Source: an uncultured Chloroflexia bacterium (GTDB lineage Bacteria; Chloroflexota; Limnocylindria; Limnocylindrales; CSP1-4). Taken from it: a stretch of 64,000 bases of DNA. Below, one piece after another: positions 3,364 through 25,778 of this stretch (the stretch's first letter is position 1; each line of letters starts with the position of its first letter). The translations under genes and the position numbers were made by a program. Location: assembly GCA_963806175.1 (NCBI GenBank), contig CAWDXA010000011.1, positions 602,065 through 666,064 of the forward strand. Reading direction: 5' to 3'. The notes beneath the pieces were generated by a model that searched no databases, was not told where the DNA came from, and worked only from the letters and a program-made list of their open reading frames with translations.

Positions 3364-3472
3364 TGTCCGGAGATGCTGAATCGCGCAAGTGACCGACCTC
3401 CAGCATAGGGGCAGCACGGGACACGGAGGGGCCCGCGTCACAGCCGCCACCGGCGGGCCTACAATCGCGGTC

Positions 3473-16077: not shown

Positions 16078-16152
<75 letters not shown>

Positions 16153-20936: not shown

Positions 20937-21002
20937 TCGAGGCGGGATCGGGCCGATCCTCCGGCCGCCTTCCTCTGGTACTCTGCGGACGTCCTTTCAT
21001 GG

Positions 21003-21042
21003 CCGGTCCCGTGAGGCCGGCGTACCGGTCCCGTGAGGCCGG
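21003..21042 (+). promoter_or_regulatory. Two tandem copies of an 18-nt hairpin motif in the carA leader (candidate PyrR-type or other RNA-protein site)
   Basis: CCGGTCCCGTGAGGCCGG occurs at 21003-21020 and again at 21025-21042. A third partial copy, CCGGTCCCGT, is at 21111-21120. The loop UCCCGUGAGG resembles the Bacillus PyrR loop UCCAGAGAGG. Confidence 0.4.
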
Positions 21043-21060
21043 GAAGGAGGCTGATCGTCC

Positions 21061-21180
21061 GTGCCACCGCCGATCGGCGGACCGCGCCGCCGCGCCCGCC
21101 GCCAACGCGCCCGGTCCCGTTGGGTGCACGGTGAGCCCCCTTCCTCCGGCTCCTTGACGGGTCCCGACCTGCCCACGTGA
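21061..21180 (+). CDS. Candidate 39-codon upstream leader ORF, Arg-rich, translationally coupled to carA
   Basis: GGAAGGAGG (21042-21050) lies 10 nt before GTG 21061. The product is MPPPIGGPRRRARRQRARSRWVHGEPPSSGSLTGPDLPT. Its stop TGA 21178-21180 overlaps the carA GTG 21177 (GTGA). The composition could also be a high-GC artefact. Confidence 0.3.
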   Translation: MPPPIGGPRRRARRQRARSRWVHGEPPSSGSLTGPDLPT

Positions 21181-22334
21181 CCATCCCGCCGTCCCCGCGC
21201 GCCTCAGCCGTCGTCGACCCGCGGATCGGCGACCTCGGTCCGGCGCTGCTCGCGCTCGAGGATGGATCCGTCTTTCCGGCGATCGCCTTCGGGGCCGCGG
21301 CGTCCGTCGGGTGGCGACCTGGTGGTGAACACCAGCCAGACCGGCTACCAGGAGGTCTGCACCGACCCGTCGTATGCCGGCCAGGTCGTGGTCATGACCT
21401 ACCCGCTGATCGGCAACTACGGCCGGCTGCCTCGACGACGACCAGTCGCTCCGGCCCTGGCTCCGTGCCCTCGTGGTCGCCAATGCGACCGCGGCCGTCC
21501 TCGACGGCGCCCGCCAGCTGGCGGCGCTCCTGCGCAACAACGGGATCCCGGCGATCGCCGGCGTCGACACGCGGGCCCTCGCCCGCCACTTGCGGACGAA
21601 CGGCTGCCTGCGCGGGATCGTGACGTCGCCCGGCGACGTCGACCCTGCCGCGGCCGTCGATGCCGCGCGCGCGGTCGCCCGCTGGGAGGACCAGGACTTC
21701 GTGGGACAGGTGTCGCCGCCGCAGGTCACCGAGTATCCGGCCGACGGCCCCCGGCGGACCGCGGATCGGCATCGTGGACCTCGGACTGAAGGCCAACATC
21801 GTGCGGGCCATGCGGCATCGCGGCGCGAGCGTCCGGGTCTTTCCACACACGCGCGCCGCCCTCGGACGTCCTCTCCTCCGACATCGACGGGGTGATCCTG
21901 TCACCCGGTCCGGGCGATCCGGCCCGGCTCGAGGCGCAGGTTGCGCTCGCCCGCGCGGTGATCGCCGACGGGCGGCCGCTGCTCGGGCATCTGCCTTGGT
22001 CACCAGATCGTGGCGCGCGCCGCCGGCGCCGAGACGCGGCGCCTCCGGTTCGGTCACCACGGCGCGAACCATCCCGTCCAGGACGTCGAGCTCGGGCGGG
22101 TCCAGGTCACGGCCCAGAACCACGAGGTCCAGGTGGTCGGCGAGTCCGTGACGGCGAGCATCCGGCTTCCACGTGAGCCAGGTCAATCTCAACGACGGGT
22201 CGGTCGAGGGGCTCCGCCACCGCGAGCTCCCGATCGAGACGGTCCAGTACCACCCGGAGGGCGCGCCGGGCCCGCTCGACGCGCTCGAGGTGTTCGATCG
22301 GTTCGTGGCCGCGGCCCGGGAGCGGGCCGGATGA
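21177..22334 (+). pseudogene. carA: Carbamoyl-phosphate synthase small (glutaminase) subunit, at least 6 frame shifts
   Basis: [88 protein letters not shown], (C)[23 protein letters not shown] and [11 protein letters not shown] lie in six different frames. The breaks are at ~21312, ~21425, ~21750, ~21865, ~21985 and ~22155. Confidence 0.9.
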
Positions 22335-25300
22335 GCGGGCCGGGCCCGAAGCCCGCGTCCGTCCTGATCCTCGGTTCCGGCCCGGTCGTCATCGGCCAGG
22401 CCGCCGAGTTCGACTACGCCGGGACGCAGGCCTGCCGGGCGCTGCGAGCCGAGGGGATCCGGACGATCCTCGTCAACTCGAACCCGGCCACGATCATGAC
22501 CGACCCATCGGTCGCCGACGCCATCTACCTGGAGCCGTTGACCGTCGAGGTGGTCGAGGCCGTGATCGCCGCCGAGCGTCCGGAGGGATTGCTGGCCGGC
22601 CTGGGCGGACAGACCGCGCTCAACCTGACCGCGGCCATGGCCGACGCCGGCGTCTTCGCCCGCCATCCGATCCGGTTGCTCGGGACGCCCCTGGAAGCGA
22701 TCCGGATGGCCGAGGATCGTGAGGCGTTCCGCGACCTGCTGGACCGGATCGGCCAGCCGTACGCTCCCAGCCGGATCGTCGAGGGGGCGACGGCGGAGGA
22801 GCGGTCGGGCTCGGCCGACACGGCCCTCGCGGAGATCGGCCTGCCGGCGATCATCCGGCCCGCCTTCACGCTCGGCGGGACCGGCGGCGGCATCGTCGAG
22901 ACCGAGCCCGCGTTCCGGGAGCGGATCCGGGCCGGCCTCCGGGCGAGCCCGATCGGCCAGGTCATGGTCGAGCGCTACCTGACCGGCTGGCAGGAGATCG
23001 AGTACGAGGTGATGCGCGACGCGGACGACACCTGCATCGCCGTGTGCGGCATGGAGAACGTCGACCCGCTCGGCGTGCACACCGGCGACTCGATCGTGGT
23101 CGCGCCGATCCAGACGCTGACCGACGCGGTCCACCAGCGGCTCCGCAGCGCGGCGCTGGCGATCATCCGGGCGCTCGGTGTCGAAGGCGGCTGCAATGTC
23201 CAGTTCGCCCTGTCGCCGGACTCGACCGAGTACGCCGTGATCGAGGTCAACCCGCGCGTCTCGCGGTCGTCGGCCCTGGCCTCCAAGGCGACCGGTTACC
23301 CGATCGCCCGGGTTGCGGCGCAGATCGCGGTCGGCCGCCGGCTGGCCGAGATCCCGAACGTGGTGACCGGCACGACCGTGGCGGCCTTCGAGCCGGCGCT
23401 CGACTACGTCGTGGTCAAGCTGCCCCGCTTCCCGTTCGACAAGTTCCCGACCGCCGACCGGACGCTGGGCAGCCAGATGAAGGCCACCGGCGAGGTGATG
23501 GCCATCGACCGGACCTTCGGCTCGGCGCTCAACAAGGCGCTCCGTGGGCTCGAGCAGGCGGGCGTCGGGCCGCTCGCCGAGGACCCGTCATGGAGGGCCA
23601 CGTTCGACTACCTCGCCGCCGTCTACGCGCGACGACCAGGACGCGGACGAGCCGATCCGCTGGGTCGACGAGACGGGCGCCGCGTGCGAATCCACGCGCC
23701 ACGCGCAGCGTGCCGGGGCCCCGATCGTCCTGCGCCGGTTCCTGGAGCCGTCCGACAGCCGGCTGTGGCGGATCCTCGGGCTGATGCGCCGCGGCGTGCC
23801 GGAGGCCCTCATCGGCGAGGTGACCGGCATCGCGCCCTGGTTCCTCGGCGAGATGGGCCGCAACGTCGCCCTCGAGGGGGAGGCGCGGGCGGCCGGCGAA
23901 GGGCTCGCCAATGCCGGCGACCCGGCAGCCGCAGAGCTGCTCGCGACGCTCAAGCGGGCTGGGTTCGGCGATCGCGAGCTGGCCGGCCTGGCCGGCACGA
24001 GCCCGGCGGCGATCCGCGCCGCCCGCGTGGCCCTCGGGCTGCGGCCCGGCTACGCCATGGTCGACACCTGCGCCGCCGAGTTCGCCGCGGAGACGCCCTA
24101 CTTCTACTCGACCTACGCGGCCGCCGGATCGCCCCCGGAGGCGCCGCCGGTCGAGCGGGAGGCGGCGCTCGTGATCGGTTCCGGCCCGGTCCGGATCGGG
24201 CAGGGGATCGAGTTCGACTACTGCGCCGTCCAGGCGGCCGACACCCTTCGGAAGGCGGGCTGGCGGGCGGTCATGATCAACTCCAACCCCGAGACGGTGT
24301 CGACCGACTTCGACGCCAGCTCGCGCCTCTACTTCGAGCCGCTCGACCCGGAAAGCGTGCGCAACGTCATCGAAGCGGAGTCGCCCGACGGCGTCGGGCT
24401 GCTCCCCGCGGTGGTCGCCTACGGCGGCCAGACGCCGCTCAACCTCGCCAGCTCGCTGGCCGCCGACGGGGTGCCGCTGCTCGGCTCGGATCTCGAGGCC
24501 ATCGACCAGGCCGAGGAACGGACACGCTTCTCGGCCCTGCTCGACCGGCTCGGCATCCCGCAGCCCGAGGGTGGCATGGCCCACAGCGTCGAGGAGGCGC
24601 TGACCCTGGCCGATCGGATCGGGTACCCGGTCATCGTTCGGCCATCGTTCGTGATCGGCGGCCTCGCGATCGACTTCTGCTACTCGGCGTCGGACCTGGC
24701 CCGTCAGCTGGCGGCGGCCACGGTCGTCGACCCCGACCGGCCCGTCCGCATCGACCGCTACCTCGAGGGAGTCGAGGTCGACGTCGACGCCATCTCCGAT
24801 GGCCAGGTCGTGCTCATCCCGGGGCTCCTCGAGCACGTGGAGCGGGCCGGCGTCCACAGCGGCGACTCGGTCGGCATGTTCCCGCCGCAGACGGTCTCGA
24901 CCGGCGACCAGGAGCTGATCGTGGCGACGATGGAGCGGATCGCCCTGGCGCTCGGCGCGCGCGGGCTGGTGAATGCCCAGTTCATCGTCCGCGACGATGG
25001 CGTCTACCTGATCGAGGTCAACCCGCGGGCGTCGCGCACCGTGCCGTTCATGTCGAAGGTGACGGGCGTGCCGATGGTCGAGCTGGCGGTGCGGATCTCG
25101 CTCGGCGCGACCCTGCCCGAGCTCGGCTGGCAGGGCGGGCTGCTGGCTCCGCCGCAGCTGGTCGCCGTCAAGGCACCGGCCTTCTCGACCGCCAAGCTGC
25201 GCGGGGTGGATCCGTCGCTCGGCCCGGGCATGCAGTCGACCGGCGAGGTTATCGGGATCGCGACCGACCCGCGTGTCGCCCTGGCGAAGGCCCTGCTCGG

Positions 25301-25778
25301 CGCCGGGCTCATCCCGCCGCGTCCCGGCGCCGGCGGAACGGTCGCGCTGCTGTCGATCGCCGACCGCGACAAGGCGCTGCTGCCCCGGCTGGCGGCCGGC
25401 CTCGCATGACGCGGGCTACCAGTTGGCGGCGACCCCCGGGACGCGTGCCGCGCTGGCCGACGGCGGGCTTCGATTCCCGTCCGGTGGCGAAGCTCGGCGA
25501 CGCAGCCGACGACGGCATCGGCGAGGTCCCGATCCTCGACCTGATCCGCTCCGGGGAGGTGCGCCTCGTCGTCAACACGCCCACGCCGCGCTCCGGGGTG
25601 GTACGCGACGCGGCCGAGATCCGCCACGCCGCGACCGCCGAGGGGATCCTGTGCCTGACCGCGATCGAGACCGGCGGTCGCCGCCGCGGAGGCGCTCGAC
25701 CCGGCGATCGCCGAGCGGCTCGCCGAGGTCCGGTCGCTCGAGTCGTGGGTGCCGGCGGGGTCGGCCGTTCCCGCGTAA
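22331..25778 (+). pseudogene. carB: Carbamoyl-phosphate synthase large subunit, about 4 frame shifts
   Basis: ATG 22331 overlaps the carA stop (ATGA). [22 protein letters not shown], both ATP-grasp halves (second: [22 protein letters not shown]) and the MGS-like tail ...[10 protein letters not shown] are present. The breaks are at ~23600, ~25400, ~25465 and ~25675, and the stop is TAA 25776-25778. Confidence 0.95.

Follow-up and report, generated by a model that had tools for sequence, protein, structure and literature searches.

Carbamoyl phosphate synthetase (CPSase), encoded by carAB, feeds arginine as well as pyrimidine synthesis. In the Escherichia coli pyrBI operon, control involves UTP-sensitive pausing of RNA polymerase; a leader open reading frame (ORF) spans the terminator, and a ribosome close behind the polymerase suppresses termination. 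The pyrR leader of Mycobacterium smegmatis is said, from work of Fields and Switzer in 2007, to mediate PyrR-dependent translational repression. For Thermus strain ZO5, Van de Casteele et al. reportedly proposed in 1997 a PyrR-gated leader ORF that contains a terminator, has no antiterminator and is relieved by the translating ribosome. As far as we know, the mechanism of a PyrR-gated leader ORF rests on this Thermus proposal, without experimental test. Here we analyze the 5' leader of carAB in a 64-kb stretch of DNA (the window; 72% GC), the source of which, judged by its CarA sequence, is a Limnocylindria-like Chloroflexota metagenome-assembled genome (MAG). The Limnocylindria are an abundant, uncultured soil and freshwater lineage. 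From its sequence, the leader is probably a PyrR-type pyrimidine control element, with twin hairpins that gate a short upstream ORF (uORF) coupled to carA. The statement of an initial annotation of the window that it knew of no bacterial example of such a leader is overstated given the M. smegmatis and Thermus ZO5 cases.

Twin hairpins within one lower stem

The leader was compared with two sets of sequences. The nearest relatives of the reconstructed CarA protein (67–85% identity) come from MAGs that carry the label Candidatus Limnocylindrales, Chloroflexia or Chloroflexota (loci L001–L014), and these carA-anchored relatives were not selected on the hairpin. A scan of metagenome contigs with a twin-hairpin pattern added at least 120 further loci, and the counts over 118, 124 or 127 leaders given below rest largely on these loci, among the matches listed. 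Features of the window are on the plus strand unless stated otherwise.

Two exact copies of the 18-nt sequence CCGGTCCCGTGAGGCCGG, pointed out already in the initial annotation, occupy positions 21003–21020 (hairpin 1) and 21025–21042 (hairpin 2), 22 nt apart from start to start; the window holds no third exact copy. Each folds into a 6-bp stem, CCGGUC/GGCCGG with one U-G pair, and the hexaloop CCGUGA, which conforms to C-N-G-N-G-A and is closed by C-G and then U-G. The 3' arm of hairpin 2 runs straight into the Shine-Dalgarno (SD) sequence GGAAGGAGG of the uORF (21042..21050), with G21042 common to both elements, and this is the canonical geometry of a PyrR site. The strength ascribed to this SD at first sight is borne out by a predicted pairing energy with the 16S rRNA tail of -14.4 kcal/mol. 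Between the hairpins lies the 4-nt spacer CGUA (21021..21024). Its length is 4 nt in all 112 metagenome matches measured, with a search pattern that allowed 3–6 nt, and its sequence is CGUA in 84 of 124 leaders.

Both hairpins are enclosed by a single lower stem, predicted to form between the 5' box UCCUUUC (20992..20998) and GAAGGA of the SD. A YCYU(U/G) box is present at most 16 nt 5' of hairpin 1 in 122 of 127 leaders; it is the counterpart of the CCUUU/AAAGG lower stem in the Rfam PyrR consensus and is SD-paired in the predicted fold. Hairpin 2 together with the lower stem UCCUUU/GAAGGA resembles the consensus hairpin of the Rfam family RF00515, CCUUuUAAaucAGUCCaGaGAGGCUgaaAAGG, but where the consensus has a short 5' bulge (UAAA) below its upper stem, the leader has hairpin 1 plus the spacer; the lower stem is conserved. 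The initial annotation had paired the SD with a tract further upstream, CCUUCCUC. That tract was placed one base off (it lies at 20968–20975), it falls in the promoter, and the conserved partner of the SD is UCCUUUC at 20992–20998.

In hairpin 1 of the relatives, pair 3 changes between G-C, G-U and A-U, and pair 5 between U-G, U-A, C-G and G-C. In hairpin 2 of the carA-anchored relatives, only the two N loop positions vary, apart from one C-to-U change, in L014, by which a U-G pair arises; in L011 the loop is retained on a shorter stem, GGCC/GGCC. Both hairpins of the window read UC-CCGUGA-GG, and across 124 leaders loop variation is confined to the two N positions.

A partial third copy, CCGGTCCCGT, is present at 21111–21120 as annotated; it lies inside a 21-nt in-frame insertion (21105..21125) that is missing from L122 and other members of the subclass of the window, and it is probably functionless, since it lacks the GAGG half of the site. 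Some relatives (L006 5760–5850; L097, L140 and L179) have three hairpins, or a hairpin 1 loop interrupted by an inserted stem-loop, the interrupted form being CCGGUCC-AUC-GCGACCG...CGGUCGC-GCGAGGCCGG. At pair 5-14 of hairpin 1, the U-G wobble is replaced several times by C opposite A, as in CCGGCC...GAGACCGG (e.g. L116, L184 and L198), and a C-A opposition also occurs in the stem of pyrR-linked sites of Solirubrobacterales (L073, L074 and L079). Protonated A-C wobbles are isosteric with G-U pairs, and wobble geometry may be the conserved feature at this position of the stem. Weak matches to Rfam RF03006 (M23 RNA) on the minus strand, at 20993–21041 of the window (14.0 bits) and 370–417 of L009 (18.8 bits; threshold 41.2), are probably due to chance; when reverse-complemented, the M23 consensus is similar to CCUUUC...CCGG.

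PyrR-type identity of the hairpins

The hairpins are PyrR-type binding loops, as judged from loop consensus and model searches. The resemblance of the loop to the PyrR-binding loop of Bacillus, remarked upon in the initial annotation, holds in detail, as the loops follow C-N-G-N-G-A and relatives include the exact Bacillus-type UCCAGAGAGG. A covariance model (R1) was built from 10 hairpins located directly 5' of pyrR genes in other phyla, with zero Limnocylindria sequences; these source hairpins covary at six of seven stem pairs, and 0 of 500 shuffles were as good. In an unfiltered search of the whole 64-kb window with R1, the best match was hairpin 2 (26.5 bits, E = 1.9e-5), followed by hairpin 1 (17.6 bits, E = 0.011); the third match reached 12.5 bits. 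PyrR-motif regulons have been tabulated for Chloroflexus (pyrRBC) and Thermus (pyrRBC), and carA or carB are PyrR-motif targets in Lactococcus and Lactobacillus (PMC3766115). Hence, PyrR exists in the phylum, and carA and carB are known targets elsewhere.

Promoter and probable 5' end

An extended -10 element, TGGTACTCT (TGnTAnnnT), is located at 20976..20984. The motif TGnTAnnnT was found in 121 of 127 related leaders, and its end lies 16–18 nt 5' of hairpin 1 in 118 of these 121. Transcription would start about 7 nt past this element, at approximately 20989–20992. A simple sigma-70 scan of the window leader detected no -35/-10 pair. The upstream tract CCTTCCTC (20968–20975) lies within the conserved promoter, 3' of its -35 and 5' of its -10 region; with an RNA 5' end at about 20990, this supposed anti-SD falls in the promoter spacer and is probably absent from the RNA. 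A perfect palindrome, GGATCGG-G-CCGATCC, at 20946–20960 follows just past the stop codon of the upstream gene and covers the expected -35 position. Relatives, which have other genes upstream, do not share this palindrome; it could be the terminator stem of the upstream gene or an operator.

Leader open reading frame and coupling to carA

The uORF comprises 39 codons (21061..21180, MPPPIGGPRRRARRQRARSRWVHGEPPSSGSLTGPDLPT), begins with GTG and ends with TGA at 21178–21180. It shares four nucleotides, GTGA (21177..21180), with the start of carA, the GTG of which is at 21177. This frame and its overlap had been described correctly in the initial annotation, as had the missing SD of carA, whose start is predicted to pair with the 16S tail at only -3.7 kcal/mol, compared with -14.4 kcal/mol for the uORF. 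The asymmetry holds across the family, with means of -12.6 kcal/mol for the uORF and -4.9 kcal/mol for the main start, and all 98 uORF starts scored reach -8 kcal/mol or better. The closest metagenome contig among the matches listed, L122 (81% nucleotide identity), shows the uORF in the same frame, with the same N-terminal motif and the same GTGA overlap.

Of the 118 complete leaders that contain a separate uORF, 98 have a uORF stop that overlaps or adjoins the main start, the arrangement being NTGA in 87 leaders, TGATG in three and a pair of abutting codons in eight. The 87 leaders with a 4-nt overlap contain uORFs of 21 different lengths, from 18 to 59 codons, all of them phased onto the main start; leader ORFs of the whole family measure 15 to 59 codons, and the 98 phased leaders span more than 21 lengths. 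In the listed sequences, read by eye, the main start codon is always followed by A, although the residue encoded by the second carA codon may be Ile, Thr or Lys; the invariant A despite the varying residue indicates that the overlapping stop codon is under selection. Another seven leaders, and L011, have the SD-proximal start joined in frame to carA. These sequence features support the conclusion that the uORF is real and coupled to carA.

The peptides encoded by the uORFs differ between subclasses, and apparent peptide conservation is due to the RNA structure underneath. The peptide class HRA...AGGFFV, for instance, is the translation of the hairpin CCACCG...CGGUGG followed by UUUUU.

Terminators and the terminator-less subclass

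Terminators were detected by an RNAfold-based procedure with criteria chosen by us. Inside the uORF, 62 of 118 leaders have a stable hairpin (-10 to -23 kcal/mol) with a U tract behind it, and in the class with an 18-codon uORF the U tract ends at the main start codon. When the full leaders of the relatives were folded, the minimum-energy structure contained the terminator in 57 of 61 cases, which argues that there is no antiterminator.

The window, L122, L087, L088, L117, L200 and others form a subclass that has no U tract and no terminator. Alignment of terminator-less leaders revealed a conserved box, AUCGGCGG-N6-CCGCCGCGCC (21073..21096 of the window), which forms a GC hairpin, GGCGG/CCGCC, without a U tract and sits roughly where other leaders have the terminator hairpin; the invariance of third codon positions in this box points to an RNA-level constraint. 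The uORF box CCGCCGAUCGGCG can also pair with the carA codons 21219–21231, but this long-range pairing was rejected as a by-product of the IGG and RIGD codons; it is palindromic in the window and L122 only.

The C-rich 3' half of the uORF contains an anti-SD-like pyrimidine box, CCCCCUUCCUCC (21136..21147), and a YYUUCC box (CCCUUCC or CGUUUCC) recurs about 30–45 nt 5' of the main start in terminator-less leaders. The pairing of the SD with a downstream tract that had been put forward in the initial annotation thus has a recurrent counterpart, but in the window the duplex is not significant (-19.3 kcal/mol versus a shuffle mean of -16.7 kcal/mol, p = 0.095), and only a few members of the subclass reach p values of 0.02–0.035. 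The pyrimidine tracts mirror the SD and are not its perfect reverse complements; manual antiparallel pairing gave eight of nine positions, with one G-U pair and one A-C mismatch. In view of the duplex p values, a switch between SD and anti-SD was rejected, and the box is kept as a conserved, unexplained element. The subclass is rich in C and poor in G: the C/G ratio is 1.30 in terminator-less and 1.03 in terminator-bearing leaders; the uORF of the window has a C content of 0.47 and a G content of 0.32.

In the mechanism that we infer, transcription would start about 7 nt after the extended -10 element, and the RNA would fold into two identical PyrR-type hairpins nested in one lower stem of UCCUUU and the GAAGGA of the SD. 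At high pyrimidine levels, UMP- or UTP-loaded PyrR, which probably spans both hairpins as a dimer of dimers, would lock this fold and thereby hide the ribosome-binding site of the uORF; the tandem arrangement suggests cooperative binding by a PyrR oligomer. At low pyrimidine levels, ribosomes would translate the uORF, stop at the UGA overlapping the carA GUG and then start again on carA, for which no separate ribosome-binding site exists. In about half of the relatives, the uORF holds a terminator without an antiterminator, and an untranslated leader would be terminated before carA, while a translating ribosome would suppress termination. The subclass of the window has lost the U tract, and its features therefore support a mainly translational control, PyrR blocking the SD of the uORF and carA depending on reinitiation. 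Rho acting on the C-rich untranslated leader may reinforce control in this subclass.

Distribution of the leader

The leader is conserved in at least approximately 130 loci. It lies 5' of carA in 12 of the 14 carA-anchored relatives, the exceptions being L011, with variant stems, and L005, which has the twin before carB. Hairpins, uORF phase and overlap are all conserved in the regions upstream of carA in the relatives, the comparison with which the initial annotation had proposed to check its reading. Among the matches listed, the leader is followed by carA in 104 loci and by carB in 15, the remaining contigs being too short to tell. The position before carA or carB is independent of the upstream gene. 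Taken together, the conservation and the R1 ranking place the leader well beyond chance. Within the Limnocylindria, it marks out a regulon of carA and carB that is class-wide.

Where carA and carB are separated, carB has its own PyrR-type hairpin leader. In L005 (5040–5100), no uORF is present and the twin hairpins lie right on the carB ATG; carA of L005 is without the leader. L184 contains a twin-hairpin leader before both carA and carB. In L099, carA is preceded by a twin leader, and one hairpin was detected before carB.

The carAB locus and sequence quality

The carA gene (21177..22334), coding for the small subunit of CPSase, requires six +1 frame corrections as sequenced. Its stop codon overlaps the carB ATG as ATGA at 22331–22334 (carB ATG at 22331), so that a coupling chain would run from the uORF to carA and on to carB. 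Relative to L122, whose carA is uninterrupted, the insertions are at about 21309, 21429, 21741–21744, 21850, 21988 and 22159; all have the same direction, and none lies within a homopolymer run of more than 3 nt. The frame segments of carA have a high third-position GC content, share 83–85% identity with relatives and contain no in-frame stops. The carB gene contains at least one frameshift in 3.4 kb, at about 23614–23649, with signs of more near 25400–25750, and other genes of the window have frame breaks as well. In both carA and carB, every frame segment still codes for well-conserved protein. The frame breaks in carA and carB could reflect assembly error or recent pseudogenization; because of them, the frame of the uORF was checked in cleaner relatives (L122).

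The gene 5' of the leader encodes a PspC/LiaF-like membrane protein and is not a pyr gene. A tRNA-Lys(CUU) gene is located at 16078–16152, 5 kb 5' of the leader. In L011, a near-identical tRNA, judged by eye from the sequence, lies immediately 5' of the leader, and L006 has a tRNA gene 5' of the leader at 3367–3438 (Rfam match).

Objections and alternative explanations

Several observations weigh against a PyrR-gated, translated leader. The RF00515 model gave no match in the window, either at the gathering threshold or at E <= 10, and none in the twin leader of L009; a scan of the window with Rfam returned only chance-level matches (mir-3960, CRISPR-DR23 and M23). The model is insensitive here, because genuine pyrR-linked sites also score below its threshold: a control site before the pyrR gene of an Omnitrophota genome (L033) reached 43.9 bits versus a threshold of 54, and other pyrR-linked control sites went unreported at gathering. 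The insensitivity is also explained by the design of the model, which combines a single hairpin with a Firmicute-type terminator. RF00515 thus overlooks high-GC, non-Firmicute PyrR sites, even those directly before pyrR. Covariation within the Limnocylindria is thin, with two pairs showing double changes, since the sites are near-invariant and the metagenome set was picked by a pattern that fixes hairpin 2; for this reason, pyrR-linked sites of other phyla were used instead. No pyrR gene was detected in the 64-kb window by tblastn or by a profile hidden Markov model, within 6 kb of carA in the 14 relatives L001–L014, or in the metagenome locus sequences searched. A database search with a Dormibacterota PyrR protein returned only close Dormibacterota-like proteins, its reach being too short for the Limnocylindria.

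The folding energies and the state of the locus are further objections. In nearest-neighbour calculations for protein-free RNA, an extended alternative hairpin (-31.4 kcal/mol) is more stable than the twin hairpins plus lower stem (-23.8 kcal/mol), so that the twin form would need co-transcriptional folding or protein binding. The whole leader of the window, for which folding had been suggested as a check, folds no better than shuffled sequences (z = -0.9; second test, z = -0.8). It contains no terminator by the RNAfold criteria or in a promoter/terminator scan. The terminators of L182 and L001 likewise escaped the simple terminator scan, apparently owing to a 1-nt bulge in the stem, and RNAfold-based detection was used on that account. 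Finally, carA as sequenced is broken by six frameshifts. If carA were a pseudogene, the leader would be a relic in this genome; six +1 insertions in the 1.15 kb of carA, compared with at least one frameshift in the 3.4 kb of carB, and their occurrence outside homopolymer runs of more than 3 nt speak for this possibility. We nevertheless consider it unlikely, as each segment of carA retains its third-position GC content and its identity to relatives, with no in-frame stops, and frame breaks in other genes of the window are what is expected of an error-prone assembly; moreover, the leader itself is intact and colinear with that of L122, where carA is uninterrupted, except for the one 21-nt in-frame insertion. 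The failure to find pyrR near any locus and the lack of an RF00515 match would also suit hairpins that are not PyrR sites at all, and that represent instead the site of another protein, a small-molecule riboswitch, a repeat, a mobile element or a terminator that belongs to the upstream gene. This is very unlikely, since the hairpins fit both the independent pyrR-linked model and the PyrR loop consensus and occur, among the matches listed, before carA or carB only, on the sense strand, 3' of a conserved promoter and behind variable upstream genes. No further exact copy exists in the window, and typical aptamers are larger than an 18-nt hairpin.

Granted that the hairpins are of the PyrR type, they might repress translation without the uORF being translated, the frame and the GTGA overlap being by-products of a GC-rich sequence and carA being initiated directly. 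Stop codons are rare at 72% GC, the window contains many overlapping ORFs, and the uORF peptides are poorly conserved between subclasses. This explanation is quite unlikely in view of the phase, which is kept in 98 of 118 leaders over more than 21 lengths against a chance expectation of one third, of the strong SD that always precedes the uORF start while the main start has none, of the constant A after a main start whose next residue varies, and of the insertion in the window, the 21 nt of which preserve the frame. The initial annotation had correctly counted eight Arg among residues 9–20 of the uORF and had considered a pyrimidine-sensing site combined with an Arg-codon-rich ORF biologically sensible, with a high-GC artefact as an equal possibility; one could envisage that PyrR senses pyrimidines and that ribosome stalling at the Arg codons senses arginine, by analogy with the fungal arginine attenuator peptide and with amino-acid attenuators. 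Besides these eight Arg in 12 residues, the recurrence of an RRA or RR motif in the subclass of the window and the supply of arginine synthesis by carAB agree with dual sensing. Arg richness is, however, no property of the family: the Arg fraction is 0.21 in the window uORF, the family median is 0.11, and whole subclasses are without Arg; many uORFs, such as MSAYALAHHADQAGGSFVIWTAVG, have none. The sole conserved Arg codons of the subclass are an invariant CGCCGC without synonymous change, which forms the 3' arm of the GC hairpin (GGCGG/CCGCC); this points to a constraint on the RNA rather than on the peptide. Seven of the 39 codons in the window, two of them for Arg, belong to the 21-nt insertion missing from L122, and no ARG box match was found anywhere in the window. 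Stalling in a reinitiation relay would presumably cut carA translation, which is the wrong direction for arginine starvation. The marks of an arginine attenuator, namely a conserved regulatory peptide or a conserved string of codons specifying the amino acid that is sensed, were not found. Such dual sensing is therefore extremely improbable; arginine sensing is not supported by the data, nothing speaks for retaining it, and it should be dropped. A narrower variant for the terminator-less subclass, in which PyrR would gate loading of the uORF and CGC-CGC in the GC hairpin would tie ribosome progress to arginine supply, and hence to reinitiation on carA and to shielding of the C-rich, Rho-accessible leader, is highly improbable; if a dual-signal reading were true, one CPSase operon would answer to both end products.

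Comparison with known systems

The PyrR-type leader of carAB shares the hexaloop C-N-G-N-G-A, the UC...GG closing pairs and a target in the pyrimidine pathway with the pyr attenuators of Bacillus subtilis and RF00515; its lower stem resembles CCUUU/AAAGG, but with a second hairpin plus spacer in place of the 5' bulge. It differs from the B. subtilis attenuators in that it has no switch between antiterminator and anti-antiterminator, that the leader is predicted to be translated, and that the RF00515 model does not match. As in E. coli pyrBI, the leader ORF of the terminator-bearing relatives spans an intrinsic terminator; pyrBI involves no RNA-binding protein, whereas here a PyrR-type site would gate the loading of ribosomes.

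Like the M. smegmatis pyrR leader as reported, the window leader has a hairpin whose 3' arm runs into the SD, so that binding would block initiation and no terminator would be needed. The same geometry is seen in L020, L073, L074 and L079, in the fused Limnocylindria leaders and before carB of L005. Unlike in M. smegmatis, the hairpins in the window leader are twin, and the ORF under direct control is the 39-codon uORF that would relay to carA; the gene itself would be controlled directly only in the seven fused leaders and, as carB, in L005.

In layout, the window leader resembles the leader reported for Thermus ZO5 in that its PyrR-type site adjoins the SD of a leader ORF running into the start of the downstream gene, and 62 of 118 relatives also carry, as in ZO5, a terminator inside this ORF without an antiterminator. 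In contrast to ZO5, which has one hairpin, the window and its relatives have two in a single lower stem, their targets are carA and carB and not pyrR-pyrB-pyrC, and the leader of the window has no terminator. Leaders with a single PyrR hairpin, an SD, a leader ORF with a terminator and an overlapping start were also found before pyrR in Rokubacteria (L025 and L045), Omnitrophota (L033) and proteobacterial MAGs (L041, L052 and L053), and the translated-leader PyrR attenuator looks widespread. The leaders lie at about 3110–3215 in L025, 3005–3180 in L045 and 750–905 in L033; L025, L033, L041 and L052 were read through and show a leader ORF with an intrinsic terminator and a stop overlapping the pyrR start.

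We know of no description of tandem PyrR-type hairpins with a fixed 4-nt spacer in one lower stem. The new features relative to the known systems are these tandem hairpins, the carA and carB targets in the Limnocylindria and the terminator-less subclass. The at least approximately 130 natural variants provide comparative support for the older Thermus leader-ORF model, and the terminator-bearing, terminator-less and directly fused leaders form a natural series for study.

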